Shown here piece by piece: positions 6,869 through 31,955 of a DNA stretch of 31,955 nt. Each line of letters opens with the position of its first letter. Position 1 is the stretch's first letter. Where the stretch lies: assembly GCA_963825055.1 (NCBI GenBank), contig CAWGSK010000024.1:1-31955 (forward strand), written 5' to 3'. The notes under the pieces are model-generated. The model was not told the origin of the DNA. It was given only the letters and a program-made list of their open reading frames with translations, and did no database searches. This stretch comes from an uncultured Gemmatimonadales bacterium. GTDB taxonomy: Bacteria; Gemmatimonadota; Gemmatimonadetes; Gemmatimonadales; GWC2-71-9. A program made the translations under genes and the position numbers.

Positions 6869-6870
6869 GC

Positions 6871-7890
6871 GTGGCCGACCCGACTGAACCCGTCATGCGT
6901 GAGGAGTTCCGCTCCGAGATCACGAGCCTGCTCGTGGTCGGCGCGGGGCCGGCGGGGCTGGCGGTGGGCATCGAGGCCGAGCGCCATGCGGTGCCCTGCA
7001 TCCTGGTGGACCGCGGGACTGTCGTCAGCACCATCGAGCGGTATCCCCTCGGCATGACCTTCTTTTCCACCCCGGAGCGGCTCGAGATCGGCGACGTGCC
7101 CTTCATCGCGAGCCACGAGAAACCGACGCGCCGCGACGGCCTGCTGTATTACCGGCGGGTGGCGGAGCATTTCGAGCTGGATGTGCGCCCCGGGGAGAAC
7201 GCCGTGGCCGTTGCGCGCGATTCCCATTCCCACTACCGGGTTACGGTGGAGCGGCGGGACGGCCGGCAGGTGTACCTGGCCGAGGCCGTGGTCTTCGCGA
7301 CGGGGTACTACGACTGGCCCAACCTCCTTGGGGTGCCCGGCGAGGACCTTCCGCACGTCCACCACTACTTCCGGGAGGGGCATGCGTACTGGAAGCAGAA
7401 CGTGGTCGTGGTCGGGGCGGGGAACAGCAGCGTGGATGCGGCGCTCGAGTGCTACCGGGCCGGCGCGCAGGTAACCATCGTGCATTTCGGGCACGAGTTT
7501 GACCGGACGGTAAAGGCCTGGGTCATGCCCGACATCATTAACCGGGTGAGGGAGGAGAGCATCGCCGTCCGCTGGGGCGCCCGGCTCTCCCTCATCACGC
7601 CCACCGAAGTGGAGATCGTCCTGGCGGATGGCGGGACCGAACGGTTCCCCTGTGACGCCGTCCTGGCCATGACGGGCTATCACGCCGACACCACCCTGCT
7701 TCGTGAGCTGGGTGTCCCGGTGGAGCCGGACACCGGCGTTCCGGCGCACGACCCCGGGACCATGGCCACGCCGGTGCGCGGCATCTACGTCGCGGGCGTC
7801 CTGGCGGCGGGGAATGACGCCAACCGGCTGTTCATCGAGAACACACGCCATCACGGGGAGGCGATTGTGGGAGATTTTCTCGGTCGCTGA
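6871..7890 (+). CDS. ypdA: YpdA-family FAD/NADPH disulfide reductase (putative bacillithiol disulfide reductase)
   Basis: GAGPAG, YPLGMTFFSTPERLEIG, KPTR, ATGYYD, GAGNSSVDAALE and FIEN. No TrxR CxxC. An alternative ATG at 6895 is possible. Confidence 0.88.
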   Translation: MADPTEPVMREEFRSEITSLLVVGAGPAGLAVGIEAERHAVPCILVDRGTVVSTIERYPLGMTFFSTPERLEIGDVPFIASHEKPTRRDGLLYYRRVAEHFELDVRPGENAVAVARDSHSHYRVTVERRDGRQVYLAEAVVFATGYYDWPNLLGVPGEDLPHVHHYFREGHAYWKQNVVVVGAGNSSVDAALECYRAGAQVTIVHFGHEFDRTVKAWVMPDIINRVREESIAVRWGARLSLITPTEVEIVLADGGTERFPCDAVLAMTGYHADTTLLRELGVPVEPDTGVPAHDPGTMATPVRGIYVAGVLAAGNDANRLFIENTRHHGEAIVGDFLGR

Positions 7891-7985
7891 CGGTGAATGG
7901 TGAAGAGTGAAAGGAAAAGAGAAGGGTCGCGGGGATGACTTCCCGTGACCCTTTCACTGTTTACCCCTCACCTCTCACCGCTGTC
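7891..7985. repeat. Inverted heptamer arrays (NNGTGAA... / ...YTYAC) flanking a hairpin
   Basis: CGGTGAA TGGTGAA GAGTGAA on the left; CTTTCAC TGTTTAC CCCTCAC CTCTCAC on the right. Confidence 0.7.
7922..7953. terminator. Likely bidirectional terminator hairpin between convergent ypdA and the pilX-like gene
   Basis: AAGGGTCGCGGGGA-TGAC-TTCCCGTGACCCTT forms a 14-bp stem with two G-U pairs on the plus strand. A-rich left flank, T-rich right flank. Confidence 0.7.
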
Positions 7986-9884
7986 TCACGGCTGGTTCTG
8001 CTGGAACCAGGTTGCCACGTCGAACCCGACCGGGTCGATCTCGTAATACCGGTTCTTGGTGAACCGTCCAGTCGTCGGATAGTACGGCGGCGGCTGGTCC
8101 ACGCCGCAGTGGTCGTAGGTGTCCTGCTCGGCCCACCCGGAGGAGCCGGAGTAGGTGGCGGCGATGCCCTGCTGGATCGAGCCACCGATCATCTTCTTGC
8201 AGCCGCGGGTCGTGCCGCCGCAGTTCTCCGGCGATACCACCGATTCGCCGCTGGCGCCGATGTTCTCGCCGGTGAAGGCGCCCAGGGTCAGCATGAACCC
8301 GTGGATGAGTTCGTCGGGCGTGTCGTCGAACTGCACCGTCCAGCTGCTGTTCACCTTGAAAGGCGTATTGACACTGTTGTCGGCCACGGTGGCATCGTCC
8401 GGGGTCAGCAGGCCCAGGATGTCGGCGCACGTCGTGTTCGGCGGCGTGACGTAGGTGATGTCGTCATCGATCATGACCTGACCGGTGGAGACCAGGGTAA
8501 CCCGGCCGCGTATAGTCCCGCTGACGCCGACGGAGCCCGAGACATAGATGACGCCCTTGAAGTTGGGGTTCATCGCCCGGCTCAGCGGGATCATGGTGAG
8601 CGCCACCGCGCCGGCGTTCGCGACGTTGGTGACCCCCTGGGTCACGAGCGCTGCGGAGATGGTCGCGTTGGGCGTGCCGCCCCAGCCCGCCCAGGTCTGC
8701 CAGGCGCCGTAGGCATTGGCGACCCGCGCGAGTGAATCCGGTTCCAGGAACCGGTCACCCCCCAGGTAGCAGCGGCGGCTCGCGCTGGCGAGCGCCGTCC
8801 GCACGGCATTCCGGGCGTTGGTGGTGCCCTGGCCGTAGAAGGCGACGATCGAGTCCGCGGTGTACCAGTCGGTGACGCCGCCCAGCGTCACCGTGCCGCC
8901 GCAGTTGGCGGAGTTGAAGTTGGGGTCGGTCGAGCTGCTGGTGCCGCCGGGCCAGCTGTAGCCGCCCGGATAGGCCCATTTCCGGCCATTGGCATAGGCA
9001 CGGTTCCGCTGCTTGACGTAGCCGCTCCCGGTCTGGTCCGCCTTGAAGATCCGGAAGAAGCCTTCGTTGGCGTCGGTGACGTCCCCGTCGTTGTTGAGAT
9101 CCAGCGGGACAAACTCGATCCGGGTATCCGGATCGAATGCGCCGAGGGTCCCGTCCCCGGTGAAGTCAGTGTTACCCGCCTGGGCATAGATCTGCATCGC
9201 CGTCAGGGTCGCTGTGGTCGGGAACGTGATGGGCGGCGCACTCGTGGTGATGCCGCCGTTCCAGTTCCCCTGGTTCTGGTTACTGACACTGGCTGCCACG
9301 ACGGATACAGGCCCCCAGAAGGTGGCGCCGGGCTGGCCACCCCGGCTTTGCACGGCCATGCCCTGGTTGGAGTGCAGGGGCCCGAAGATGACTTCCTGGT
9401 TGCCCCACATGCAGCAGGACCAGGTATTGAAAAACCGGGCAAATCGGCTGAACGGATCCTGCTTGAGCTGGATCCGGCGGACCACCACGGCGCCACGGGC
9501 GTTGCTGATGACCGAGATGGCACTGGCGAAAATGCCGAACTGCCCCGTGCTGTCCCCGGAGCGGCCTGCGTAGACAGAACGGGTGAAGCCCGGAATCACG
9601 TTGCCGTAGGCGTCACGCACGACGGCGTTGAGCTGGAGCGTGTCGAACGCGCCCGGTCCGTTGGGCAGCAGGGCCGGCGTGCCGTTCAGGGTATCACGCG
9701 CCCACTCGAGGCCGCCATCGGCGGCACCTTCCATCATCGCCTCGGTCGCATGGAACTTGGTGATGAGGTTGGTGTTGCTGGACATGATAATGACGCCCAC
9801 GGCCATACCGGTGACCATGAGGGCCAGCAGCACAGTGAGGATGAGGGCGACGCCACGCTCGTTCAGCTTCGGATACTTGCGCAT
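7986..9884 (-). CDS. Large PilX/GspK-like minor pilin with extended C-terminal domain
   Basis: Class III signal ERG|VALILTVLLALMV lacking Glu5 (a PilX hallmark), then EGAADGGLEWA. 632 aa with a Gly/Thr/Asn/Cys-rich C-terminal part. Last gene of the pilin cluster. Confidence 0.8.
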   Translation of the reverse strand: MRKYPKLNERGVALILTVLLALMVTGMAVGVIIMSSNTNLITKFHATEAMMEGAADGGLEWARDTLNGTPALLPNGPGAFDTLQLNAVVRDAYGNVIPGFTRSVYAGRSGDSTGQFGIFASAISVISNARGAVVVRRIQLKQDPFSRFARFFNTWSCCMWGNQEVIFGPLHSNQGMAVQSRGGQPGATFWGPVSVVAASVSNQNQGNWNGGITTSAPPITFPTTATLTAMQIYAQAGNTDFTGDGTLGAFDPDTRIEFVPLDLNNDGDVTDANEGFFRIFKADQTGSGYVKQRNRAYANGRKWAYPGGYSWPGGTSSSTDPNFNSANCGGTVTLGGVTDWYTADSIVAFYGQGTTNARNAVRTALASASRRCYLGGDRFLEPDSLARVANAYGAWQTWAGWGGTPNATISAALVTQGVTNVANAGAVALTMIPLSRAMNPNFKGVIYVSGSVGVSGTIRGRVTLVSTGQVMIDDDITYVTPPNTTCADILGLLTPDDATVADNSVNTPFKVNSSWTVQFDDTPDELIHGFMLTLGAFTGENIGASGESVVSPENCGGTTRGCKKMIGGSIQQGIAATYSGSSGWAEQDTYDHCGVDQPPPYYPTTGRFTKNRYYEIDPVGFDVATWFQQNQP

Positions 9885-9915
9885 GATCCTGCTCCTGGTC
9901 CGTGGTCCTGCACGC

Positions 9916-11088
9916 CTACGGGTTCACGAGGGTCGGGGCGCTGATGGACAGGCTGGATTCCGTCGGGGAACAGTCCTGTGCCGCCACGCCGTATTCATAG
10001 ATCTGGCCGACCACGAGCCCCTGGCCGACCGTGATGTCGTAACTGGGCTGTCCGGCCGCCACGGACTGGAACGGGAGCCAGGTCGGCGAGCCGACGAGCC
10101 GGTAGTACACGTTGTACTGGGACACGTCCGTCTCGCCCGAGGTCTCGTCGACCGACGGGTTCCACTGGAGCCGCACCGTCGGGGGCGTGGTCGGCGCATT
10201 GGGGGTGGCGATCACCGCCGACGTGAAGATGGGCTGGTCGCCGCAGGTCTTGAGCTGGACCAGGCCGTTGTTCGGCGTCCCGATCATGGTGGAGACGAGG
10301 CGGGCCGTGGAGTCCGTCCCGTCCGCGTTGGTCACCATGAAATTCACCCGCACGACCCGGATGCTGTCCGCGAGCGCCGAGGCCGCGGTGTCCGCCGGGC
10401 TGCCGTGCCAGCCGGCCGTATGGCGGAATGGCACTCGAGCGGCGGCGAGCTGCGTGGACACCACCGTGCCGGCCGCGGTCGAGCTGTCGTACCAGAACTC
10501 GAAGAATGGACGCCCGGGGTATGGATAGATGTTCCGGGCGACCTGTTCCGGCGGCATGACATTCACCTGCTGCAGCAGCAGGAAGTCGTTCGGGTCCGGC
10601 GTGGTCGAGTCAGGACGGAAGTAGAACATCATCGTCTCCGCCTGGCTCGGCGTGCCCGCGCCCCAGAAATAGTTGGAGTCCGGATATTGGGTCGCGGTCC
10701 CGGGGATGGTCAGCTTGGCGTTGTTCCGCATGCTGGATACTGCCCCGGCCGGAACATCAGGGTTGATGTAGAGCGCCGTTCCGTCGGGAACCACGGCCGC
10801 ATAGTTCGTGTTGAACAGGATCGTGGTGTTCGACCCGTACACGAACATCGGCTGGTTGGCCGCGACCCCTGCACCGGTGGTCCGGAGCACCCGGTCGATC
10901 GTGCTCACGGCATAACGCATGTTCTGCATCATCTCCATGCGGGTGCCTCCCCGCCTGAAGTTGATGCTCTGCGAGCGCATCATCGTCAGGGCGCTGCCCA
11001 TCACGATCCCCATGACCACCAGGGCCACCAGCAGCTCGACCAGAGTGAAGCCGGTCCGTTCGTCGTGTGCGCGCAGGATCGTCGTCAT
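9916..11088 (-). CDS. PilW-like minor pilin with C-terminal fibronectin type III-like domain
   Basis: TG|FTLVELLVAL prepilin motif. C-terminal VRLQWNPS...SQYNVYYR...GLVVGQIYEYGVAAQD is an FN3 pattern. Confidence 0.85.
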   Translation of the reverse strand: MTTILRAHDERTGFTLVELLVALVVMGIVMGSALTMMRSQSINFRRGGTRMEMMQNMRYAVSTIDRVLRTTGAGVAANQPMFVYGSNTTILFNTNYAAVVPDGTALYINPDVPAGAVSSMRNNAKLTIPGTATQYPDSNYFWGAGTPSQAETMMFYFRPDSTTPDPNDFLLLQQVNVMPPEQVARNIYPYPGRPFFEFWYDSSTAAGTVVSTQLAAARVPFRHTAGWHGSPADTAASALADSIRVVRVNFMVTNADGTDSTARLVSTMIGTPNNGLVQLKTCGDQPIFTSAVIATPNAPTTPPTVRLQWNPSVDETSGETDVSQYNVYYRLVGSPTWLPFQSVAAGQPSYDITVGQGLVVGQIYEYGVAAQDCSPTESSLSISAPTLVNP

Positions 11089-11468
11089 GGGGCCGCCACT
11101 ACGATGGTGATATTGACCGGCGGGCCCATCGTGGGCTCCGACACCGTCACGGTGATCGTCGTATAGTCGCGCCGGGGGTTGTTGCCCGTCGTGCGGAGCA
11201 CCCGGGTGGTCCGGGTCATGTTCGGATAGCCGGAGAAGCCGGTCACCGTGTTGTTGTTGTACGTCGCGACCAGCGTCGTGTAGCTGGTGTTGGCGCGGAT
11301 GATCTCGGCCTGTTCCTGCGCCACGGCGGTCGCGACCGTCTTGGCGTTCGATGTCCCGACGGTATGGAGGAAGGAGCCCACGAACCGGCCCAGCCCCAGC
11401 GCCACCACGGACAGAATGACGATGGCGACGAGCACTTCCACCAGGGTGAACCCGCGCTGCGTGCGCAT
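11085..11468 (-). CDS. PilV-like minor pilin
   Basis: RG|FTLVEVLVAIVIL, A..VAQEQAE and a C-terminal ITVTVS strand. 127 aa, translationally coupled to both neighbours. Confidence 0.88.
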   Translation of the reverse strand: MRTQRGFTLVEVLVAIVILSVVALGLGRFVGSFLHTVGTSNAKTVATAVAQEQAEIIRANTSYTTLVATYNNNTVTGFSGYPNMTRTTRVLRTTGNNPRRDYTTITVTVSEPTMGPPVNITIVVAAP

Positions 11469-12079
11469 CAGTTGCCTCGCTTCCAGGTGCTCGACGCGTA
11501 GGTGTACCAGACGACCCGACCGCTGGAGCGGATGATCTCGCCCGCGCGGACGCCGTTGGTGGACCCGGCGGCGAGGCCCTTCACGGTGTTCAGATAGAAG
11601 CCGCCCGCCTCGCTGGCGGAACCGTCCCGACGGAACGCGACTACGGGGAGCCCCGCCTGCGTCTGGGTGAAGTTGACCGTGGCCAGTCCCTGGGTGCCGT
11701 TGGTGTAGGTAACCGGGGGGGCGGCGCCGATGCCGAACGTCACGCCCTCTTCCAGGTTGGTGTAGGTCACGCGCTCGCCGGCCTCGATCACGCCGTTGTT
11801 GTTCCGGTCCTCGTGTACCCGGAGCCGGCGGTTGGGCTGGTCGACCGCCACCCGGATGTCATGCTGGAGGGTGACCGCGAGCCGCTGGGAATAGCTCAGG
11901 GTCGCGGTGATCCCCCGGACGGCGGAGTTCACCCGATACCCTTCCAGGTTGAGACGGGGAATGGCGATCGCGCTGACCAGGCCGATGACGGCCACGACGG
12001 TCAGGAGCTCGATGAGCGTGAACCCCGCGCGGCGTGCGGCGCGGCCGGTGCACCGTATTGCGTATGTGGTGTGGATCAT
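11468..12079 (-). CDS. FimT/FimU/GspH-like minor pilin
   Basis: AG|FTLIELLTVVAVIGLVSAIAIP, DRNNNGVIEAGE, FRRDGS and SSGRV. ATG at 12079 with GGGAG 5 nt upstream. Confidence 0.88.
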   Translation of the reverse strand: MIHTTYAIRCTGRAARRAGFTLIELLTVVAVIGLVSAIAIPRLNLEGYRVNSAVRGITATLSYSQRLAVTLQHDIRVAVDQPNRRLRVHEDRNNNGVIEAGERVTYTNLEEGVTFGIGAAPPVTYTNGTQGLATVNFTQTQAGLPVVAFRRDGSASEAGGFYLNTVKGLAAGSTNGVRAGEIIRSSGRVVWYTYASSTWKRGN

Positions 12080-12086
12080 GTCTGCT

Positions 12087-12162
12087 CCCAGGCAGCCGGG
12101 CAATCTCGGGGAGACCCCTGGCTTTGCGCCCCGCCGTCGCCGGCGGTTAGCTCTTTTCTGGA
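12087..12162 (-). ncRNA. GEMM-I cyclic-dinucleotide riboswitch (c-di-GMP-I family), A20 variant, candidate 3',3'-cGAMP sensor
   Basis: Minus strand reads UCCAG AAAAGA GCUAA CCGCCG GCGA CGGCGG GGCGC AAAGCC AGGGGUCUC CCC GAGAUUGCCC GGCU GC CUGGG. P1, the GNRA-capped P2, GCAAAGCC, P3 and the A47/C92 equivalents are all present. Confidence 0.88.
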
Positions 12163-12246
12163 CGCCCGTTCCGTTCCTAGGGTGAACGACCGGGCAAGGG
12201 CCGCCCTGGCCGGGGCCGGGTGCGGGCGCGATAGACCTGACTGATT

Positions 12247-12263
12247 TGCAAGTTCCAAGCCCG
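12247..12263 (-). promoter_or_regulatory. Putative sigma54 (-24/-12) promoter of the minor-pilin operon
   Basis: Minus strand CGGGC-TTGGAAC-TTGCA has GG-N10-GC spacing and lies just upstream of the riboswitch. Confidence 0.5.
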
Positions 12264-12381
12264 ACCCTGGACAGCGGAACAAGCCCAATGAGGCCAGGGG
12301 GTTGGCAGTGACTCGGGACGGGCCCGGGCGTTCGTTGCGATCGCACCTTGCTGGAGAGGTGGCGGCCCGCTATGCCGTTCC

Positions 12382-22086: not shown

Positions 22087-22255
22087 ATCGCCATCCGGAC
22101 CCGCAAACCGCGATTCATGAGGCCTTTACGTATCGGCCCCACCAGCCGGCAATGACATCCCGGTAGCAACGGTTCGATCCAGCCTGTAACACCACGATAC
22201 AGCGTCCGGGGGGGTAGTCGGGCGTTCTTCATGGGGGAGAGGAGCCAGATGGCCT

Positions 22256-22272
22256 CTGGCCTCGGGTTTGCA
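22256..22272 (+). promoter_or_regulatory. Putative sigma54 (-24/-12) promoter of the multiheme cytochrome operon
   Basis: CTGGC-CTCGGGT-TTGCA matches TGGC-N7-TTGCW, 54 nt upstream of the first ATG. Confidence 0.6.
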
Positions 22273-22325
22273 ACTTTCCGGAGCGGATATCCGCGCCTCA
22301 ACCGCAAATCTCCCCTGGAGCCTCC

Positions 22326-23279
22326 ATGGCCTCAACCATCTCCGGCACCGCGGAGGCACGCGCATTTGTCTTTCAGGGCCGCCCACAGGCGGAGCGCATT
22401 GCCTTCGAGGCCCCGGCCGGATGGGGTGAACGGCTCTTCCGGGCCCTCCTGCTGCTCGTCTGGCTCGGCATCGCCTCCACCTGCCTGCTCTACGGTCTGG
22501 ACTACTACCGTCTGCCCCTCGCGGCGCGGGCGGCAGCTCCGCTGCACGACCTGCTCAAGCCCTCGGGCCTGATCGGGCAGGGGTACGGCATCGTCGGCAC
22601 CCTGTTCATCATCGCCGGCGTCGGCAGCTACTCGATTCGCAAACGCATCCCCTGGCTCCGCAACCTCGGGACGCTGCACCACTGGCTCCAGGTGCACGTG
22701 TTCCTGTGCACGATCGGTCCGTTCCTGGTCCTGCTCCACACGACCTTCCGTTTCGGCGGGATCGTGTCCATCGCGTTCTGGAGCATGACGGCGGTCGCCA
22801 TCAGCGGCCTGTTCGGCCGCTTCGTGTACGCGCACATCCCCCGCACGATCCACGGCCAGTCCGTCACACTGGATGCCGTCCGGGCGGCGCAGGAAGACCT
22901 TCAACACCGCATACGCGAGGCCTGGTCTGGCGAGGCTGAGGTGCTCGCATTGCTCAAGCGCCCTCGCCGGGTGCCGCCGCGGAACGTGCTCGTGGCCCTG
23001 GTGCTGGCCATGCGCTATGACGTGTCCCGCCGCTTCACGTTGCGGCGCCTGCGGCGCCAGCTCGACCGGAGCCGCCTGCCGGCCAACATGCAGAGCGAGC
23101 TCCTGGCAGCCGTGCGGGCGGAACTCGCAGTGGAGCAACAGATGCTGCTCCTGCAGCCGTTCCAGCGCCTGTTCCACTGGTGGCACGTGTTCCACCTCCC
23201 GCTGACCGGGGTGATGTTCGTCGTCCTCACCGTGCATGTCGCGGTGGCCATCATGTTCGGGTATACCTGGATCTTCTAG
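22326..23279 (+). CDS. Polytopic inner-membrane protein with His-rich helices (putative heme b / ferric-reductase-like membrane subunit)
   Basis: About 5 TM helices, with His in or near them: WLQVHVFL, LLHTTF, WHVFHLPL, LTVHVAV. RBS GGAG. Confidence 0.7.
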   Translation: MASTISGTAEARAFVFQGRPQAERIAFEAPAGWGERLFRALLLLVWLGIASTCLLYGLDYYRLPLAARAAAPLHDLLKPSGLIGQGYGIVGTLFIIAGVGSYSIRKRIPWLRNLGTLHHWLQVHVFLCTIGPFLVLLHTTFRFGGIVSIAFWSMTAVAISGLFGRFVYAHIPRTIHGQSVTLDAVRAAQEDLQHRIREAWSGEAEVLALLKRPRRVPPRNVLVALVLAMRYDVSRRFTLRRLRRQLDRSRLPANMQSELLAAVRAELAVEQQMLLLQPFQRLFHWWHVFHLPLTGVMFVVLTVHVAVAIMFGYTWIF

Positions 23280-24776
23280 GTGAACCTTCCGCCGCGCGGT
23301 CCCGGCATCGTCCGGCTCCTGCTCGTCTTCCTCTGCTTCGTGGCGCTTCTGCCGGGCAGTGCGGCGGCACAGATCATCTCGCCCGGCAAGCTTGCGCAGG
23401 ACCATGCGGAGCTGGAGGGGATCCGGAACTGCACGCAGTGTCACCAGCTCCGGCAGCGGGGGATCGACAATGCGAAGTGCCTCGAGTGCCACGCTCCGCT
23501 GAAGCGACGGATCGACGAGCGGAAGGGGCTGCACGCGAGGTCGAGCGAGCGGAACTGTGCCGACTGCCACCGCGACCACTTCGGTCGCGAGTTCGCCCTG
23601 GTCGCCTTCGACACGGCCAGGTTCGACCACGCCGATGCGGGATACGACCTGGAAGGAGCGCACCATGACCTCGGCTGCCGCGACTGCCACGAACCGGTCC
23701 TGGTGCGTGCGCCCGACGTCCGGGCATTTGCCTCTCGCCACGGCGGGCTCGACCGCACCTTCCTCGGCCTCGGGACGACCTGCCGGAGCTGTCACGAGTC
23801 GGATGACCCGCACGGCGAGCAGTTCGGCGACCGTGCCTGTACGGCCTGCCATACCCAGCAGGACTGGACTCCCGCATCAGGCTTCGACCACGACCGCGCG
23901 AAGTACCGCCTCACCGGCGCCCACCGGCAAGTGGACTGCGCCGGCTGCCACCGCGACCAGAGCCGTGATCCCAGGCATCCGCGCGTGCGCTACACCGGCC
24001 TCGCCTCTGGTGCCTGCAGTGACTGCCACACCGACCCGCATGGCGGCGCGATGAACGGCGCATGCGCCACCTGTCACGCCACCACCGGCTGGCGACAGCT
24101 CGATCGCTCGGGCTTCGAGGGCCGCTTTGACCACAGCAGGACCGGCTTCATCCTGCGGGGCGCCCATGCGGGGGCCGACTGCCGGGCGTGCCACACTCCC
24201 GCACGGGCGCCCCGGGCGGGTGTGCGGATCCGCTTCGTGGCCGGGGGTGGCTCGTCAACGTACCCGAAGCCGGTGGCGCGGGACTGCCTGAGCTGCCACG
24301 TGGACCGCCACCAGGGTGCCTTCAAGGAGGTGGAGGGCGGCCCGGTGTGCACCAACTGCCACGGCGAGCGAGCCTGGCTGCCGTCATCCTTCGATCTCGA
24401 GCGCCACAACCGGCCCGGTGGCTATGCCCTCACGGGCGCGCATCGCGCGGTCGCCTGCCAGGACTGCCACGTCCGGTCCGCGGACTCCACGGCCTGGACA
24501 TGGCACATCACCGGGCAGTCCTGCGAAGACTGTCACGGCGCCCGTGAGCCGCATGCCGGCCAGTTCGCCGGACGGGCGTGCGCCGACTGCCACACGATTG
24601 CCACGTTCGCCCTCGCCGGCTTCGACCACTCGAAGACCCGATACCCGCTCGACGGCGCGCACGTGAAGCTCCCCTGCGCCGACTGCCACCGCCAGGAGAC
24701 GACGGCGGATGGGAAGACCTTCCGTCGCTACACGCCCCTCGGCACGGCCTGCCGGGACTGTCATGGAGGGACCTGA
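23280..24776 (+). CDS. Multiheme c-type cytochrome, 17 CxxCH motifs
   Basis: Sec signal peptide (…GSAAA|Q). 17 CxxCH counted by hand. Repeating FDH…L-x-GAH…CxxCH units. Confidence 0.93.
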   Translation: MNLPPRGPGIVRLLLVFLCFVALLPGSAAAQIISPGKLAQDHAELEGIRNCTQCHQLRQRGIDNAKCLECHAPLKRRIDERKGLHARSSERNCADCHRDHFGREFALVAFDTARFDHADAGYDLEGAHHDLGCRDCHEPVLVRAPDVRAFASRHGGLDRTFLGLGTTCRSCHESDDPHGEQFGDRACTACHTQQDWTPASGFDHDRAKYRLTGAHRQVDCAGCHRDQSRDPRHPRVRYTGLASGACSDCHTDPHGGAMNGACATCHATTGWRQLDRSGFEGRFDHSRTGFILRGAHAGADCRACHTPARAPRAGVRIRFVAGGGSSTYPKPVARDCLSCHVDRHQGAFKEVEGGPVCTNCHGERAWLPSSFDLERHNRPGGYALTGAHRAVACQDCHVRSADSTAWTWHITGQSCEDCHGAREPHAGQFAGRACADCHTIATFALAGFDHSKTRYPLDGAHVKLPCADCHRQETTADGKTFRRYTPLGTACRDCHGGT

Positions 24777-24777
24777 G

Positions 24778-26304
24778 ATGCGTCGAGCCCTGCTGTCGGT
24801 CCTCCTCGCGCTGCCGCTCGCGGCCGGCGCCCTCATGGCTCAGGCCGGCACGCCGAGCCCGCACGGCGACATGCGCGTCAACATCGACTGCAGTGCCTGT
24901 CACACACCCCTGGTGTGGAAGCCGGTCAAGGCGGCCATGGAGTTCGACCATGCGCGCCAGGCTCAGTTCCCGTTGACCGGCCGGCATGCGGCGGTTCCCT
25001 GTGCCCGATGCCACCTGGACGCGCGTTTCGACGAGCCGAAGATCGCCCCGGACCAGTGCCGGGACTGTCACCTGGACGTACATCGCGGCCGCCTGCCCGA
25101 CTGCGCCTCCTGCCACACCACCACGACCTTCCAGAGCGTGCCTGCCATCCAGGTGCACGCGCGCACGAGTTTTCCCCTCACCGGGGCACATCTCCAGGTG
25201 CCGTGCGAAAGCTGCCACACGGACGAACGGCATGGCGCGTTCGCCCCGGTGGACGGCGATTGCGTCAGCTGCCACCTGCCCGACTACCAGGGCGCGCAGA
25301 CGGTCGACCACGTTGCCGCCGGCTTCCCGACCACCTGCCGCCGGTGCCACTCGACCGTGGCCTGGACCGGCGGGGTGCCGTTTGACCACGTGTCCGTTTC
25401 GGGCGGATTCGTCCTGGCGGGCGCCCACGTCCAGCTCCGCTGTGCGAGTTGTCACGTTCCGCCGTCAGGCATGCTCAAGTTCGTGCCGCCGCCATCCAGT
25501 GCGAATGACTGCGTCGCCTGTCACCAGCAGGACTACAACCGCCAGCACGGCAACAGCGGATTCCCGACCACGTGCACCGATTGTCATAACGTGAACACGT
25601 GGGATGATGCGCATTTCGACCACACCGCGGCCAGCGGCGGCTTCGCGCTGCTCGGCGCCCACCAGCACACCAGCTGCGATGGCTGTCACATCCCGCCGTC
25701 GAACCAGCTCCGCTTCACGCCTTCGGGACAGAACGACTGCATTGCGTGCCACCAGCAGGAGTTCACCGCCCAGCACGGAACGGGCGGGATCCCGAACACC
25801 TGCCTCGACTGCCACACCGTGGACACGTGGTCCGGGGCGACGTTTGATCACGCGGCCATTGCCAACGGCTTCGCCCTGGTCGGGGCCCACCAGCAAAGCC
25901 CCTGCGCGGCCTGCCACATTCCGCCGGACAACCAGCTCCGGTGGACCCCCAGCGGGCAGAACGACTGTGCGGCCTGCCACCAGGCCGATTACGACGCCCA
26001 GCACACCGGCAGCGGCTTCCCGCTGACCTGCCTGACCTGTCATACGGTGGACAGCTGGACGGGCGGTTCGTTCACCAACCACGATGCCCAGTTCTTCCCG
26101 ATCTACTCCGGGAAGCACAACGGCAGGTGGAACAACGACTGCTCGACCTGCCACAATGTGGCCGGGAACTACACCGCCTTCACGTGCTTCGCATGTCACG
26201 AGCACAACCAGACGGAGACCGACGGACACCACCGCGGGATCTCCGGGTACGCCTATACCAGCACGGCCTGCTACTCCTGCCACGCCAACGGGAGGTCCGA
26301 TTGA
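24778..26304 (+). CDS. Multiheme c-type cytochrome, 19 CxxCH motifs
   Basis: ATG at 24778 with GGAGG RBS. Signal peptide MRRALLSVLLALPLAAGALMA|Q. 19 CxxCH counted by hand. Confidence 0.93.
   Translation: MRRALLSVLLALPLAAGALMAQAGTPSPHGDMRVNIDCSACHTPLVWKPVKAAMEFDHARQAQFPLTGRHAAVPCARCHLDARFDEPKIAPDQCRDCHLDVHRGRLPDCASCHTTTTFQSVPAIQVHARTSFPLTGAHLQVPCESCHTDERHGAFAPVDGDCVSCHLPDYQGAQTVDHVAAGFPTTCRRCHSTVAWTGGVPFDHVSVSGGFVLAGAHVQLRCASCHVPPSGMLKFVPPPSSANDCVACHQQDYNRQHGNSGFPTTCTDCHNVNTWDDAHFDHTAASGGFALLGAHQHTSCDGCHIPPSNQLRFTPSGQNDCIACHQQEFTAQHGTGGIPNTCLDCHTVDTWSGATFDHAAIANGFALVGAHQQSPCAACHIPPDNQLRWTPSGQNDCAACHQADYDAQHTGSGFPLTCLTCHTVDSWTGGSFTNHDAQFFPIYSGKHNGRWNNDCSTCHNVAGNYTAFTCFACHEHNQTETDGHHRGISGYAYTSTACYSCHANGRSD
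25381..26070 (+). repeat. Three tandem intragenic triheme repeat units (234/228/228 bp)
   Basis: Units begin FDH at 25381, 25615 and 25843. Each reads GF-x-L-x-GAH..CxxCH-x-PP..NDCxACHQ..QH..G-x-P-x-TCxxCH-x-V-x-x-W. Confidence 0.85.
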
Positions 26305-27854
26305 GGACACCCGCCGCAGTGGCGATGTTGCTCGCGCTCCTTCCGGCCTATGCCGGTGCGCAGGACAGCACCGTGACGGCGACCGTCACGCAGATTGCCG
26401 GACAGGACGTCTACATCAACGCGGGAAGCGATGCCGGCCTGCACGCGACTGACACCGTGACCGTGCGTCGCGCGGCCGCCGGCCCTGTCCTGGGGCGGAT
26501 GACCGTCTCCGCCGCAACCGGCAGCAGGGCGCTCCTCGGCTTTCTCGACGCACCGTTCCCGCTCACCCGTGGCGATGAGCTGTTCCTCGGGATGCACGGG
26601 GGGGCGGCCCCGGAGGCCGTGCCGGCGCCGGCACCTCCGCGGGTCGCGGCCACGTCACGCCCGCGGACAGAGGCTCCGGGCGGGACCGTGGTGCACGGCC
26701 GCCTGCTGCTGGACGTCGATGGGAACCGCTCGACCACGCGCGGGTTCGGGTCGGACCCCGAGACCACGAGCCGGGACTATGCAACCCCCTCGGCCGGGCT
26801 CCGGCTCCAGGCCACCCGGCTGCCGGGTAACATGGAGTTCAGCACGGACGTCCGGGCCCGCTACCGCTACACCAGCAACGACATCATCTCACCCGCCACT
26901 GCCGTCCGGGTGTACGAGGCCAGCCTGACCCGGCGGCTCCCCGGGTCGGGATTCCTCGTGCGTGCTGGCCGGTTCTATGACCCGTACGAGTATTTCAGCG
27001 GCTACTGGGACGGCCTGATGGTGCACGCCGGCGATGAGGGGTTCGGCGTCGCCGCGCTGGCGGGCTTCGAGCCCGACCGCGGCAACCAGGGGTTCAGCAC
27101 CGACTACGCGAAGGCCAGCCTGGTCGCCCATGCGAGCCGGATCCGCGGGCGCTCCGGGATCCGGACAGATGTGTCGGTGCACCGGGTCATGCCGCGGGAT
27201 TCCTCTCCCGACCATACGTTCGCCGGCTGGTCGCAGGTCGCATGGACCGGCCGGCTTTCCTTCAGCCACAATCTGCAGGTGGACCGGAACCCGGCGAGCG
27301 GGAACTGGAATGTCACCCGCCTGCTGACCCGCCTGACCCTTCCGGTGGGTTCCTCGCTCACGCTGCACGGCGGCTATTCCATCCAGCAGCCCTACCGGCT
27401 GGGCACGACGTTCGGCGCCATCCCCTTCCGCCGGGACCGCGCCACCGCCGGCTTCGACGTCCGCCTCCCGGGAGCGAGCATCGGGGCGGACGTGAGCAAG
27501 GGCCACCAGGAGGGACTGGACGATACCTGGAGCTACTCTGGATCAGTGTACCGGTCGCCGCGGGGCCAGCACGGCGTCGGGATCGGACTCACCGGCACCC
27601 GCTGGACGGAAACGGGAAGCAACGGCGTGCTGCTTGCACCGTCCCTGGACCGGCAGTTTGGCCACTTCACGGTCCGGGGAGGGTACCAGTATTCCCGCAC
27701 CGAGTTCGGCTCCCTCGTCCTCACCACCCATGCCGCCGACCTGGGCGGCACGGTTCCCCTGGGGGGGCGAACCGGGCTGACCCTCCGGGCCCGGTGGCAG
27801 AGCGGACAGCTCTCGAGCACCGGACTGTACGCCGGCTTCTGGTACGGGTTCTGA
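26301..27854 (+). CDS. Putative outer-membrane beta-barrel (porin) with small N-terminal domain
   Basis: TTG start after GGGAGG, signal peptide (…AYAGA|Q), Pro/Ala linker, alternating amphipathic strands and a C-terminal beta-signal GLYAGFWYGF. Confidence 0.78.
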   Translation: MRTPAAVAMLLALLPAYAGAQDSTVTATVTQIAGQDVYINAGSDAGLHATDTVTVRRAAAGPVLGRMTVSAATGSRALLGFLDAPFPLTRGDELFLGMHGGAAPEAVPAPAPPRVAATSRPRTEAPGGTVVHGRLLLDVDGNRSTTRGFGSDPETTSRDYATPSAGLRLQATRLPGNMEFSTDVRARYRYTSNDIISPATAVRVYEASLTRRLPGSGFLVRAGRFYDPYEYFSGYWDGLMVHAGDEGFGVAALAGFEPDRGNQGFSTDYAKASLVAHASRIRGRSGIRTDVSVHRVMPRDSSPDHTFAGWSQVAWTGRLSFSHNLQVDRNPASGNWNVTRLLTRLTLPVGSSLTLHGGYSIQQPYRLGTTFGAIPFRRDRATAGFDVRLPGASIGADVSKGHQEGLDDTWSYSGSVYRSPRGQHGVGIGLTGTRWTETGSNGVLLAPSLDRQFGHFTVRGGYQYSRTEFGSLVLTTHAADLGGTVPLGGRTGLTLRARWQSGQLSSTGLYAGFWYGF

Positions 27855-29167
27855 TGGACCAGGATACCCTGATTATCGGCGGTACGGCCGCGGGCCTCGT
27901 GCTCGTGGCCATCGCGCCGTTCTACCTCCGTACCCGGCGGCTCGAGCGTCGGGCGACACGCGCGGCCGTGGAGGCCGAACGTTACGGCCTGCACGAACCG
28001 GTGAGCCTGCATCCCGTGGTGCATGCCGGCGCGTGTATCGGTACCGGCGCCTGCATCGATGTCTGCCCGGAAGGGGATGTCCTTGGACTGGTGCACGGGC
28101 AGGCGCGTCCCATTGCGCCGGCACGCTGCGTGGGACACGGTCTCTGCGAACGGGCCTGTCCCGTCGAGGCAATCCAGCTCGTGTTCGGGACCGCCACGCG
28201 CGGCGTCGAACTGCCGCGGGTGCGGGCCGATTTCCAGACCAACGTGCCGGGTCTCTATGTGATCGGTGAGCTGGGGGGCATGGGCCTCATCCGCAACGCC
28301 TTCGAACAGGGGCGGCAGTGCGTTGACGGCATCGCGCGCGCGCCAAGGCCCGGCGGGGAGGACCTTGAAGTCCTGATCGTGGGAGCGGGTCCCGCCGGAC
28401 TCTCCGCCTCCCTCGCGTGTCGGGAACGGGGGCTGCGCTTTGCCACCATCGAGCGGGAGGATATCGGCGGGACCGTGCGCTCCTATCCCCGAAAGAAGGT
28501 CGTCATGACCCGGCCCTTCGACATCCCGGGCTGGGGGAAGATCCCCGCCTCCGAGGTGCCCAAGGAGCGCCTGATGGAGATCTGGAGCGAGGTGGTGGAG
28601 CGCACGGGCCTCAGCGTTACGACAGGGACGACCGTTCAGTCAGTGACCCGCCAGGATGACGGGCGGTTCACGGTGGAGACCTCGGGCGGCACCTGGCGGG
28701 CGCACCGGGTGGTGCTGGCGATCGGCCGGCGCGGCATTCCGCGCAAGCTCGGCGTACCCGGCGAGGAGCTGCCGAAGGTTTCCTACTCCCTCCTGGAGCC
28801 CGAAGCGTGGCAGGGCGACCGCATTGTCGTGGTCGGGGGCGGTGATTCCGCGGTGGAGGCGGCCCTGGCCCTGGCGGACCAGCCGGGGAACCAGGTGACG
28901 GTCTCCTACCGGCGCGACCGCTTCAACCGGCTCAAGCCGGGCAACCTCGACCGCGTGGAGCACGCCATCAGCGATGGCACGGTCACGGTGCTCTGGGAAA
29001 GCCGGCTCGAGGCCATCGCCGCGGACCGGGTGACGTGGCAGGACAAGGCCGGTGCCCGGCACGAACTCCCGAACGACCGCGTGTTCATATTTGCCGGCGG
29101 CGAACTCCCCAGCGGGTTCCTGAAGGACTGCGGTATCATCGTGGATACGAAGTTCGGGGAGGCGTGA
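27854..29167 (+). CDS. Membrane-anchored 2x[Fe-S] ferredoxin + TrxR/YpdA-like NAD(P)/FAD oxidoreductase
   Basis: N-terminal TM helix. CIGTGACIDVCP and CVGHGLCERACP. GAGPAG (FAD), AIGRRG, and GGGDSAVEAA plus SYRR (NADPH). Confidence 0.88.
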   Translation: MDQDTLIIGGTAAGLVLVAIAPFYLRTRRLERRATRAAVEAERYGLHEPVSLHPVVHAGACIGTGACIDVCPEGDVLGLVHGQARPIAPARCVGHGLCERACPVEAIQLVFGTATRGVELPRVRADFQTNVPGLYVIGELGGMGLIRNAFEQGRQCVDGIARAPRPGGEDLEVLIVGAGPAGLSASLACRERGLRFATIEREDIGGTVRSYPRKKVVMTRPFDIPGWGKIPASEVPKERLMEIWSEVVERTGLSVTTGTTVQSVTRQDDGRFTVETSGGTWRAHRVVLAIGRRGIPRKLGVPGEELPKVSYSLLEPEAWQGDRIVVVGGGDSAVEAALALADQPGNQVTVSYRRDRFNRLKPGNLDRVEHAISDGTVTVLWESRLEAIAADRVTWQDKAGARHELPNDRVFIFAGGELPSGFLKDCGIIVDTKFGEA

Positions 29168-29173
29168 AGGCAG

Positions 29174-29222
29174 TCACTAGCCACCAGCCACTAGTCACTA
29201 GTCACTAATCACTAGTCACTAA
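29174..29222. repeat. Tandem heptamer repeat (YCACYAR)x7 between convergent genes
   Basis: TCACTAG CCACCAG CCACTAG TCACTAG TCACTAA TCACTAG TCACTAA. Confidence 0.9.
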
Positions 29223-31293
29223 TCCCGTACCCCACCTCCACCCCCACCCACACCGTCCGCCCCGGCCCGGGCTCGAACACCCGGCCGCCAAAACCGTTTG
29301 GCGCGATCGAGGCGACGTAGTCCCGGTCAAAGAGGTTGTGCACTCCGGCAAAGGGCATCACCCGGGCTCCGCGCGAGTCGAGGCGCCAGGACATGCGGAC
29401 GCCCGTGATGCCGGCGCCCCACCCATCGGAGGCAAGTGTGTTGTCGTCGTCGGCCGCCAGGCCGGACTGCATGGCGTGCGTGACGCCCAGCTCGAGGCGC
29501 TCGAGCGGCCGCACGGTGAGGTCGAGCGTCAGGGCGTGCGTCGGCACACCCGGCAGGGTATTCCCGTCCAGCGTGTCGACCACACCGCCGATGTCCAGGC
29601 GATAGCGGGCGAACCGCGCCCGGTTCCAGCTGTAGGAGGCCCGCGCCTCCCAGCGCGGCCGCGCCGCGACCATCCCCAGTTCCACTCCGTCGGCATGCAG
29701 CGATCCGGCGTTGGTGAAGTACGCCCGTCCACCGGATTCCTCGAACGGCACCAGCGCGTCCCTGGTCCGGCCGAGGTAGCCGGTCGCCTCGTAGCTGAGC
29801 CAGCGCAGGGGGCGCCCCCGGACGCCGGCCTCCCACGTGACCGAGCGCTCGGGGCCCAGCTCCCCATTGAATCCGCCCGCGCCGCCCGGCTGGTTGGCAA
29901 GTTCCGTGGTGGTGGGCGTCTCGAAGGCGGTACCTCCCCGGACCCACGGCACCAGGGCGCGCGCAAGGTCCAGGCTCGCCCCGAGGCTCGCGCTCAGCGC
30001 GCCAAGGGTTCGGTGACCGCCGTCGTCGCCGTCGTCCAGGAAATGGTCCGTCACGCCGAAGGCGGTGCGGTCGTATCGGAGCACGGCGTCCACCCTCCAG
30101 CCCGTCCACGGGTGAAGGTCCAGGGTGGTGAAGATGCCGAGGGCGGAGGTGGTCTCCCGCTGGTCGACCAGGAGACTGTCGGTGGGCACGCCGCCGGTGC
30201 TCGCGTGATTGGTACGGTCGTCCCGCTGTCGCTGCCAGTCCACGCCGCCACCGAGGACGGTTCCCGCGCCGAGGACGCGGTGGCCGGCCACCCGCACGCC
30301 GCCCACGAGTCGCGAAATCCCGACCAGCACATTGATGGGCAGCGGGTTGGCCAGGTCGCGGTGGAGGCCGAACACGGTGACGTCCGCCACGGCCTGATGC
30401 CGGTCGTTCCAGGACAGGGTGAATGCCGCCTGCTGCTGCGTCACGTCCTTGCCGGCATTGGTCGCGATGTTGCGCGCGGCCGCGGAATCACGGTTGAGGG
30501 CGAGTTCCCCGGTGGTGAGCGCCCCCGGGTTGTCGCCGCGCGGAGCGTCCACTACAGCCACCAGCGCGCGCAGACTTACCCGCGGCGACGCCTGCCACGC
30601 CGCGGAGGCCTGGAGCCTGGTCGCCTCCGACCTGCTGTGCTGCCGGAAGCCCCGGCTCGTAGCGCGTGATACGCCCAGTGCCACCTCCCCCTGCGCTCCC
30701 CTCGCGCCGACGAACAGTTGTGATCGCCAGAGGTCACCCGACCCGTACTGGCTGCGGAGCGAGGCCTCCTCGGGCGCCGCCGGCCTCCTGGTGGAGAGAT
30801 TGATCACGCCGCCCGCCGCGTTGCCATAGAGGCCGCCGGTCCCGCCGCGGAGTACCTCGACGTTGCCGAGGAGGCCCCAGTCGATGTTGTTGAGCTGGCT
30901 CTGGCCATCGGGAAGGGTCTGGGGGACGCCGTCGAGCAGGATGGTCACGCCGCGAACGCCGAAGGTGGCCCGGGCACCCGCGCCGCGAATCACTATGCGC
31001 TGGTCCAGGGAGGGGTTGAAGCGGTTGGAGACGATGATGCCGGGCAGCAGGGGCAGGACTTCGTCCGGACCCAGGCCGGGCCGGGACCGCATCGCCGCGG
31101 CGGCATCGAGCGTGGAGGCGGCCTGTGGGACGCGAAGCAGCGGGGCGGGCGTTCGGGTGATGGCGATGGAGTCCAGCATGATCGCCATGCTGTCACCCGG
31201 GACCTGGGCGACGGTCGCCGGGGGCCGGCCCGCGATGAGTGCCACCAGGAGGCAGGCAGGTCGCCAGGAGCGCAATGCCCGTATGGGATTCAT
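29212..31293 (-). CDS. TonB-dependent outer-membrane receptor, YncD/PqqU-like
   Basis: Plug motif IRGAGARATFGVRGVTILLDGVPQTLPDGQSQ, VEVLRG…LYGNAAGGVIN, AFETPT..EL and NLFDRDY…FEPGPGR. Start placed at the ATG at 31293 (signal peptide). Confidence 0.9.
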   Translation of the reverse strand: MNPIRALRSWRPACLLVALIAGRPPATVAQVPGDSMAIMLDSIAITRTPAPLLRVPQAASTLDAAAAMRSRPGLGPDEVLPLLPGIIVSNRFNPSLDQRIVIRGAGARATFGVRGVTILLDGVPQTLPDGQSQLNNIDWGLLGNVEVLRGGTGGLYGNAAGGVINLSTRRPAAPEEASLRSQYGSGDLWRSQLFVGARGAQGEVALGVSRATSRGFRQHSRSEATRLQASAAWQASPRVSLRALVAVVDAPRGDNPGALTTGELALNRDSAAARNIATNAGKDVTQQQAAFTLSWNDRHQAVADVTVFGLHRDLANPLPINVLVGISRLVGGVRVAGHRVLGAGTVLGGGVDWQRQRDDRTNHASTGGVPTDSLLVDQRETTSALGIFTTLDLHPWTGWRVDAVLRYDRTAFGVTDHFLDDGDDGGHRTLGALSASLGASLDLARALVPWVRGGTAFETPTTTELANQPGGAGGFNGELGPERSVTWEAGVRGRPLRWLSYEATGYLGRTRDALVPFEESGGRAYFTNAGSLHADGVELGMVAARPRWEARASYSWNRARFARYRLDIGGVVDTLDGNTLPGVPTHALTLDLTVRPLERLELGVTHAMQSGLAADDDNTLASDGWGAGITGVRMSWRLDSRGARVMPFAGVHNLFDRDYVASIAPNGFGGRVFEPGPGRTVWVGVEVGYGISD

Positions 31294-31330
31294 GGTGCCG
31301 TAAGGTAGTATGACGCTGCCCGGTTCCAGC

Positions 31331-31359
31331 TTGAACCACCTCTGGCACCCGGGTACCTT
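31331..31359 (+). promoter_or_regulatory. Putative sigma70 promoter with a very short leader
   Basis: TTGAAC-N17-TACCTT ending 10 nt before the ATG at 31370. No Shine-Dalgarno. Confidence 0.45.
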
Positions 31360-31369
31360 TCGCCCCGCC

Positions 31370-31955
31370 ATGACCCCTGCTTCACGCTACGCCGCTCCCG
31401 ACTTCACCGCGCCGCCGTTCGGCGGCGCGCCCGAGGCCCGGTTCGAGCCCGCCCCCGCCGACGGGGTGATGCCCGAGGGCTTCTTCTCCACCTCCAATCT
31501 TCCGACCTACGCGCAGGTGGACGGGGCGTGGGTCATGCCGGGTCGGCCCCGGATGGACTGCGTGCTGGTGCGGCGTCCCGCCGGTCTGGAGACGGTCGAA
31601 CCGCGCCGGGTGCGAGCCGGCGAGCCGGTCGCCATGGGACTCGCCGAGGATGGCTCGGAGGGGATCTTCGTCCATGCGGCGGCGTTCCTGGCCGGCGCGA
31701 AGGGCCATGCAGAGTTCCAGTTCATGTCCACGGAGGTGAGCCGCGAGCGGCCCGTGAACTACGAGGAACTCGCCCGGCGCCTCGTGGAGGAGCGCGATGC
31801 CGGCGGCAATCTCGTGTGGGTCATCGGGCCGGCCCTGGTGCACAGCCGGGCCCGGCGGGACATGGAGTGGTTCATCGCCAATGGCTTCGTGCAGGCCGTG
31901 CTCGCGGGCAATGCCGTCGCCGTGCACGACATCGAAGCGGCCATCTTCGGCACGA
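31370..31955 (+). CDS. Partial CDS (runs off the window): TIGR00300 / LOR-SDH conserved-region family, ornithine cyclodeaminase-like
   Basis: Translated by hand, since it is absent from the ORF track: MTPASRYAAPDF…PAPADGVMPEGFFSTSNLPT…RMDC…FQFMSTEVSRERP…GPALVHS…LAGNAVAVHDIE. These motifs are characteristic of the family. Confidence 0.8.
   Translation, partial: MTPASRYAAPDFTAPPFGGAPEARFEPAPADGVMPEGFFSTSNLPTYAQVDGAWVMPGRPRMDCVLVRRPAGLETVEPRRVRAGEPVAMGLAEDGSEGIFVHAAAFLAGAKGHAEFQFMSTEVSRERPVNYEELARRLVEERDAGGNLVWVIGPALVHSRARRDMEWFIANGFVQAVLAGNAVAVHDIEAAIFGT

Follow-up and report, generated by a model that had tools for sequence, protein, structure and literature searches.

A PCC3-like porin-cytochrome cluster with a linked NAD(P)H-type flavoprotein in an uncultured Gemmatimonadales bacterium

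The window analysed here, 31,955 nucleotides of DNA from an uncultured Gemmatimonadales bacterium (assembly GCA_963825055.1, contig CAWGSK010000024.1), carries a tight cluster of five forward-strand genes, A to E, whose products could together conduct electrons from NAD(P)H in the cytoplasm out to the cell surface. Judged from sequence, we give this reading an even chance of being right. By motif, homology and gene order the first four genes match PCC3, a published type of porin-cytochrome cluster, and the conduit itself is not new. What appears to be new is that a cytoplasmic NAD(P)H module is dedicated to the conduit and that the type ranges widely across Gemmatimonadota and Bacteroidota. 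Gene A, an open reading frame at exactly 22326-23279, encodes an inner-membrane protein of 317 residues. Genes B (23280-24776) and C (24778-26304) encode c-type cytochromes of 498 and 508 residues with 17 and 19 CxxCH motifs, gene D (26301-27854, with a TTG start after GGAGG) a predicted outer-membrane barrel of 517 residues, and gene E (27854-29167) an iron-sulphur (Fe-S) and FAD flavoprotein of NAD(P)H type with 437 residues. The gaps between successive genes are 0, 1, -4 and -1 nucleotides. An earlier first-pass annotation of this DNA had described five abutting or overlapping genes with 36 CxxCH motifs in total, and its coordinates, gaps and motif counts were all verified; composition-matched shuffled versions of the two cytochromes held at most 2 and 3 such motifs (2000 shuffles).

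A divergent branch of PCC3

PCC3, as set out by He et al. 2017 (PMC5566968), consists of a porin, an extracellular cytochrome, a periplasmic cytochrome and a membrane protein of about 300 residues. This membrane protein has five helices, an SGxxG motif and two WX3HX13H motifs, and a role as a quinone-active cytochrome b was proposed for it. The same source gives PCC3 four genes and a link to quinones, in Proteobacteria, with a function that is predicted only (PMC5566968). The clusters are found in iron oxidisers, including in a survey of Gallionellaceae (PMC9900912).

The product of gene A carries the motif of the PCC3 membrane protein exactly, and the window has the gene order that PMC11429942 labels for Slit_1446-1449, with the membrane protein first, then the periplasmic and the second cytochrome, and the porin last. 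Homology was assessed against 80 metagenome loci related to a distant homologue of A, which are PCC3-type by architecture and are not the named sequences of Sideroxydans ES-1; all 80 came from one query and so sample one subgroup. They encode a membrane protein, a first cytochrome with 21 hemes (in 30 of 34 complete cases), a cytochrome of 9-73 hemes and a barrel bearing tetratricopeptide repeats (TPRs). With HHalign, A scored 99.94% against the PCC3-type membrane protein. The N-terminal domain of B also scored 99.94% against the 21-heme cytochrome (E 1e-36, 108 columns), versus 97.1% against the second cytochrome. The match of C to the second cytochrome (99.2%) is unspecific, given B/C cross-scores of 98.8-98.9%. 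The match of D to seven PCC3-type porins was weak (37%, E 3.5e-4, 236 columns), with two single-sequence control barrels at 4% or less. In the trees of both A and E the PCC3-type metagenome loci form a clade of their own. The homology of A and B, the motif and the gene order together indicate that the window holds a divergent branch of PCC3, with the barrel as the weakest link.

Other shared features include cytochromes built of repeats with 26-28 residues per heme and a barrel of 22 strands, as predicted for Leptothrix cholodnii. C agrees with the PCC3 second cytochrome, which is rich in small residues, in its position, repeats, variable length and composition, but its profile score hardly separates the two cytochromes. 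There are also differences. The host here is a member of the Gemmatimonadota, with relatives in Bacteroidota, Ignavibacteria and Rhodothermales; the first cytochrome of this branch has 17-26 hemes (17 in B) versus 21-27 in published clusters; the barrel has about 520 residues and a small beta domain, versus 700-950 residues with TPRs, and is only weakly similar; and the flavoprotein lies within the same operon. The porin-cytochrome conduit proposed by the first-pass annotation is supported. The annotation overlooked that the four-gene core matches published PCC3, so the architecture had already been recognised; a novel conduit type was rejected on the PCC3 motif and homology.

Homologues of E also accompany PCC3 elsewhere. 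In the PCC3-type metagenome loci the homologue has a median identity of 49%, and in 53 of the 80 it lies divergent to the membrane-protein gene. Where 3.5 kb or more of upstream sequence is available it is always there (28 of 28 loci), and the 27 loci lacking it are too short. In Sideroxydans ES-1, Slit_0866, an FAD-dependent oxidoreductase of 430 residues, adjoins the named PCC3 porin Slit_0867 (PMC12016527). Its five listed peptides align by eye to residues 109-116, 216-229, 286-292, 298-308 (identical over 11 residues) and 426-433 of E. By these alignments Slit_0866 is an orthologue of E, beside the first PCC3 copy of ES-1 (Slit_0867-0870), and Slit_0525 (431 residues) may be a second E in that strain. 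Literature searches, whose coverage excluded most subscription papers and two figures of PMC5566968 that may show the flavoprotein (Figure 6 and Supplementary Figure 4), found, among the matches listed, no paper tying PCC3 to an NAD(P)H flavoprotein, and the accessible main text of the CL21 preprint mentions no oxidoreductase, ferredoxin or flavoprotein.

Linkage of the membrane protein and the flavoprotein

A genome scan with an alignment of A was used to collect 80 of at least 582 relatives, from Gemmatimonadota, Rhodothermales, Ignavibacteria and Bacteroidales. The five parts were counted in the 48 loci with at least 7.5 kb downstream, 32 loci being shorter, and all five were found together in 44. 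The barrel profile used in this count was partly built from the same loci; an independent profile found the same barrels. In most loci D directly follows C. Of 301 Gemmatimonadota genomes, 64 carry A, 67 carry E and 66 carry D. Every carrier of A has E, 64 of the 67 carriers of E have A, and D is present in 62 of the 64 carriers of A. In 20 of these 64 genomes, picked for long contigs, E lies nearby in all 20 and D in 19, the last being cut by a contig end. Among 301 genomes of Bacteroidota, the phylum of a metagenome-assembled genome (MAG) of Labilibaculum, 40 match A, 32 of them strongly; E occurs in 31 of these 32, and all 31 carriers of E have A. The cassette is thus present in about a fifth of the sampled Gemmatimonadota and a tenth of the sampled Bacteroidota, and the five genes are strongly co-conserved.

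The pairing of A with E persists through changes of gene order. E follows the barrel in 23 loci and A in 36, is divergent in 7, precedes A in 1 and is rearranged in 1. The plasmid pEMTOL02 of Emticicia oligotrophica DSM 17448, for example, has the order ccsA-A-E-B(23)-C(40)-D. In proteins P0278 and P0280 A and E are fused. P0280, of 980 residues, combines an A-type membrane domain and the permuted flavin domain with several Fe-S motifs and an N-terminus that by eye resembles a cyclic-nucleotide-binding domain. A tree correlation between A and E (r 0.77, 103 pairs) was not counted as co-evolution, since shared ancestry can produce it.

A distant homologue of A in Alteromonas macleodii (HHalign 98.6%) lies beside a 7-heme cytochrome and an FAD/NAD/2Fe-2S protein of the ferredoxin-NADP reductase (FNR) fold that is unrelated to E. 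The A family therefore occurs beside NAD(P)H flavoproteins of two folds. The Alteromonas trio (5974-10693 of its locus, on plasmid NZ_OX335041.1) stands directly upstream of a [NiFe]-hydrogenase operon and may connect that hydrogenase to NAD(P)H. In about 20 related loci A is followed by a gap (for instance 10840-11484 in L011 and 10869-11474 in L031). The two gap reading frames that were scanned encode membrane-anchored TPR proteins of about 200 residues, one weakly matching the TPRs of CcmH/CycH, and these are possibly cytochrome assembly helpers; the window holds no such gene.

Carriers of the cassette include heterotrophic Bacteroidota and Gemmatimonadota. The Labilibaculum MAG has the locus, and Labilibaculum isolates reduce Fe(III) while fermenting; NrfHA and a ferric reductase are all that the paper on them mentions. 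This branch may be among the novel porin-cytochrome clusters, left unnamed, that PMC6344600 reports from MAGs of Bacteroidetes. The Bacteroidetes cluster with six cytochrome genes in PMC8258643 was set aside, as its gene content differs. In the accessible text of the Melioribacter roseus paper (PMC5492636) no mention of multiheme or porin was found.

Components of the predicted path

E begins with a transmembrane helix at residues 5-23 followed by arginines, which indicates a membrane-anchored protein and not a soluble one. Its Pfam domains are Fer4 and Pyr_redox_3. The ferredoxin domain carries two Fe-S motifs, Cys61-Thr64-Cys67-Cys71 and Cys92-His95-Cys98-Cys102, and the His that replaces a Cys in the second recurs in 110 of 113 relatives. 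The nearest solved structures are Bdr/YpdA and FNR of the thioredoxin reductase (TrxR) type. Residues 123-162 match, modestly, the C-terminal FAD motif of lipoamide dehydrogenase (E 3e-4); in E this terminal motif of the TrxR family precedes the Rossmann fold, and the FAD/NAD(P)H domain thus appears to be a circularly permuted TrxR fold. A Tyr/His-Arg motif at the nucleotide site is one that we take to favour NADPH. Elsewhere in the window (6871-7890, forward strand) lies a Pyr_redox_3 flavoprotein, YpdA/Bdr-like and without an Fe-S domain, with 29% identity to the flavin domain of E.

By hydropathy A has five transmembrane helices, with an Arg-rich, cytoplasmic helical insert of about 110 residues; basic loops after helices 2 and 4 place these loops in the cytoplasm. 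Its motifs are W120-H124-H138 on helix 3, SGxxG at 160-164 and W286-H290-H304 on helix 5. All of W120, H124, H138, the SG at 160-161, G164, W286, H290 and H304 are invariant among 57 aligned homologues, and two sets of relatives keep the motif in 97 of 101 and 61 of 62 cases. A is accordingly a predicted di-heme cytochrome b, in which the invariant His pairs on helices 3 and 5 would hold one b heme near each membrane face. Sequence searches of solved structures returned no relative of A. Cytochrome b561 was weakly matched by 8 of 67 relatives. The structure model is fair (predicted local distance difference test, pLDDT, 82), and its scores against E. coli CybB (Z 7.8) and cytochrome b6 (Z 7.3) lie within helical-bundle noise. 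Of the likeness to NOX drawn by the first-pass annotation, the di-heme His spacing in A and a flavo-Fe-S partner of NAD(P)H type are supported.

The two cytochromes are both built of triheme repeats of 68-92 residues, and both carry cleavable signal peptides, neither with a lipobox. B has 17 hemes, about 28 residues per heme (PCC3 periplasmic cytochromes have 22-39), and 81 of 86 complete relatives have 17, 20, 23 or 26 hemes, a 3n+2 series. Relatives of C range from 9 to 46 hemes (72 complete), with 52 in one locus, L036. C contains 4.9% Lys+Arg versus 12.9% in B, and it occupies the gene position of the PCC3 'extracellular' cytochrome. A near-fixed length suits the periplasm and a variable length suits the outside, and B is likely a periplasm-spanning wire, homologous to the PCC3 periplasmic cytochrome, with C as a likely outward-facing one. 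The first reading had taken the absence of a lipobox, which stands, to mean that no surface component is encoded. This is doubtful, as the heme number of C varies from 9 to 46 while that of B stays at 17-26, and PCC3 papers, in their accessible parts, place the second cytochrome outside. No relative of C emerged from sequence searches of solved structures, and family identities with ExtN/ExtO, HmcA, NrfH and DmsE were rejected on scores far below cut-offs. A third cytochrome is present in three related loci (L042, L044 and L061), and in another (L105) the cytochrome-barrel pair is duplicated.

D is a predicted outer-membrane protein with an unplugged 22-strand barrel. In the model (pLDDT 91; 130 sequences) a flexible linker joins a small beta domain at the N-terminus to the 22 strands, and the protein ends in Phe. 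Homologues are numerous (1233 representatives at E<=0.001). The barrel assigned to 26301-27854 by the first-pass annotation is supported by this prediction, with an adequate number of strands. No Pfam or NCBIfam family was matched, and the best fold matches are 22-strand TonB-dependent/SusC barrels (Z 18, root-mean-square deviation 4.0, 364 residues aligned), above MtrB (Z 12.8, 6.4, 328).

The proposed electron path and its alternatives

In the proposed path, E would take hydride from NAD(P)H, probably NADPH, at its FAD and pass single electrons through two Fe-S clusters, an activity that its recognisable domains suggest. A, given its His spacing and topology, would carry these electrons over the inner membrane by way of a b heme near each of its two faces, in the manner of NOX and MsrQ; this supposes that A binds heme and makes contact with E. 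B would then span the periplasm, and C would extend outward through or from D, if the predicted barrel is so threaded and located. That the coupling to NAD(P)H is direct is suggested by gene linkage, fusions and topology. Flow is likely outward, and the acceptor could be Fe(III), Mn(IV), humic quinones or a partner cell. Transfer from NAD(P)H to Fe(III)-type acceptors is thermodynamically favoured and would spend, instead of building, membrane potential. Since such a route would of itself build no proton-motive force, it would likely serve as a redox sink or in reductive metal mobilisation and not in respiration. A precedent for the first half of the path is MsrQ, a membrane cytochrome fed by a cytosolic NADH oxidoreductase (PMC12525009).

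Several points weigh against this path. Its support consists throughout of linkage, motif and prediction. Related genomes are not independent, and the co-occurrence counts are therefore overstated. Four of the 48 loci are incomplete: one lacks E (L020), one has A alone (L021), one has A and E only (L073) and one has a fragmented cytochrome (L048). Comparing the model of A with known folds yielded nothing that rose above noise, and the Pfam family Ferric_reduct (PF01794) was matched by just 1 of 67 relatives of A (E 6e-4). The neighbours of the second and more highly expressed PCC3 copy of ES-1 (Slit_1446-1449) are a phosphohydrolase and an aldolase, with no E beside it. MsrQ also binds ubiquinone (PMC12525009), so a quinone role for A is possible. 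In late cultures the level of Slit_0866 on magnetite exceeded that on Fe(II)-citrate (log2 2.35 and 2.55, from few peptides; PMC12016527), and the PCC3 membrane gene of CL21 rose during iron oxidation (CL21 preprint); both results fit uptake as well.

The ubiquinone binding of MsrQ, the quinone-active role proposed by He et al. 2017 (PMC5566968) and the ES-1 copy that has no adjacent E would all suit a conduit in which A exchanges electrons with the quinone pool, with E as an adjacent dehydrogenase or accessory protein whose sole route to A may be through quinone. We consider this unlikely. A quinone-only link needs no dedicated partner, whereas the presence of A and E is near one-to-one, through five gene orders and in fusions; E resembles Bdr and FNR and not type II NADH dehydrogenase; and the distant A of Alteromonas is paired with an NAD(P)H flavoprotein of a different fold. 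A reversed flow, in which a low-potential donor such as Fe(0), reduced humics, a cathode or a partner cell reduces NAD(P)+ and E acts as a ferredoxin:NADP+ reductase, seems a little less likely again. The nearest solved relatives of E do include TrxR-type ferredoxin-NADP reductases, PCC3 is present in iron oxidisers, and the magnetite result points the same way. From Fe(II), however, inward transfer to NAD(P)+ would run uphill in potential and against the membrane potential. In addition, both PCC3 clusters of ES-1 were down-regulated on Fe(II) (PMC8788666), and carriers include the heterotrophs mentioned above.

A purely periplasmic role is the reading to which we give least credence. Here the NAD(P)H-fed cytochromes would be an electron store or supply of reductant and D a secretion or uptake pore, with no transfer across the outer membrane. 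This would accord with the missing lipoboxes, with best fold matches of D among transporter and usher barrels and not MtrB, and with shorter versions that have no recognised barrel (on a Bradyrhizobium plasmid, and in Table S6 of PMC5566968). D, however, is present in nearly all Gemmatimonadota carriers of A (62 of 64) and mostly follows C directly, and second cytochromes of up to 46-73 hemes go far beyond what the width of the periplasm needs.

The path from NAD(P)H to the surface would matter beyond this genome. PCC3 commonly figures as a candidate iron oxidase. With E at the cytoplasmic end, electrons would be expected to enter at a different point and to flow the opposite way: E would give PCC3 a quinone-independent cytoplasmic input. 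The reading of these genes in genome surveys would then change, and extracellular electron transfer would extend to Gemmatimonadota and Bacteroidota. That PCC3 as a whole is a five-subunit, quinone-independent exporter is plausible, though we hold it somewhat less probable than not. In that view a split NOX-like module, made up of the permuted TrxR-fold Fe-S flavoprotein and the di-heme b protein, would be connected to the surface by 30-90 c hemes. If so, PCC3 would be an electron outlet in iron oxidisers and not an iron oxidase, and heterotrophs and fermenters could pass electrons from NAD(P)H directly to acceptors outside the cell.

Genomic setting

Named close relatives of the locus belong to Gemmatimonadales and other Gemmatimonadota, and the genome carries heme maturation motifs of CcmC and CcmF type. 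A scan of the locus for sigma-70 promoters and terminators gave chance-level results. A second intact copy of the cassette lies on another contig of the assembly, C12, with 95.6% nucleotide identity over 21 kb. The whole window (1-31955) recurs there at 105938-135279 with 95.6-99.4% identity, except about 8100-11000, a pilin-like region that differs between the two. Contamination of the assembly is 6.1%, and many other contigs are redundant too, which points to a strain mixture; a true duplication was rejected in favour of strain redundancy, and the C12 copy is most likely a strain variant.

Converging on E from the reverse strand (29212-31371) is a TonB-dependent receptor, whose closest model, PqqU, is below cut-off; it was not seen as a conserved neighbour of the cassette. 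Several reading frames with N-methylation motifs like those of type IV pilins lie on the reverse strand at 9916-12346. Outside the window, C12 carries an unrelated second porin-cytochrome cluster (22195-28719, reverse strand). Besides a barrel and a cytochrome of 16 hemes, it encodes an 18-heme protein whose N-terminus has membrane helices and a cytochrome of 7-8 hemes that is apparently frameshifted in this assembly. In three related loci (L101, L103 and L110) a comparable cluster adjoins the five-gene module.

Comparison with other known systems

Porin-cytochrome conduits in the cited papers, as far as their accessible texts go, start at the quinone pool. MtrCAB, MtoAB and PioAB likewise combine a multiheme cytochrome with a large outer-membrane barrel. 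Here, in contrast, there is no decaheme MtrA (TIGR03508 scored 49.6 bits against a cut-off of 192), no MtrB family match, a barrel of 22 predicted strands and, in this operon, no quinol dehydrogenase of the CymA type. The Geobacter Pcc system (OmbB-OmaB-OmcB, with an octaheme and a lipoprotein dodecaheme cytochrome) differs by its description in heme counts and in the lipobox that is absent here. The membrane-protein motif of A is shared with PCC4 and with porin-less clusters of a cytochrome, a membrane protein and a redox protein. PCC4, however, has three periplasmic cytochromes of 4, 5 and 10 hemes versus two here of 17 and 19, and the 'other redox proteins' of both cluster types are not named as an NAD(P)H input in the accessible text of PMC5566968.

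E itself differs from thioredoxin reductase and Bdr (YpdA): a redox CxxC past residue 230 is absent from all 113 relatives as from E, and its score against the Bdr family TIGR04018 is 158.7 bits, below the cut-off of 339.9. For the inner-membrane half, the likeness is to MsrQ, NOX and ferric reductases, which share His-X13-His pairs on helices 3 and 5 (H124/H138 and H290/H304 in A). A cytosolic NAD(P)H flavoprotein as the proposed donor and transfer toward the periplasm are common to MsrQ, NOX and the proposed path. A differs from these proteins in having no clear sequence or fold match to them. The donor also differs from that of NOX and ferric reductases in being a TrxR-fold Fe-S flavoprotein, with an FNR-fold partner seen only beside the distant homologue of A. 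The acceptor would be a multiheme wire in place of MsrP or oxygen.

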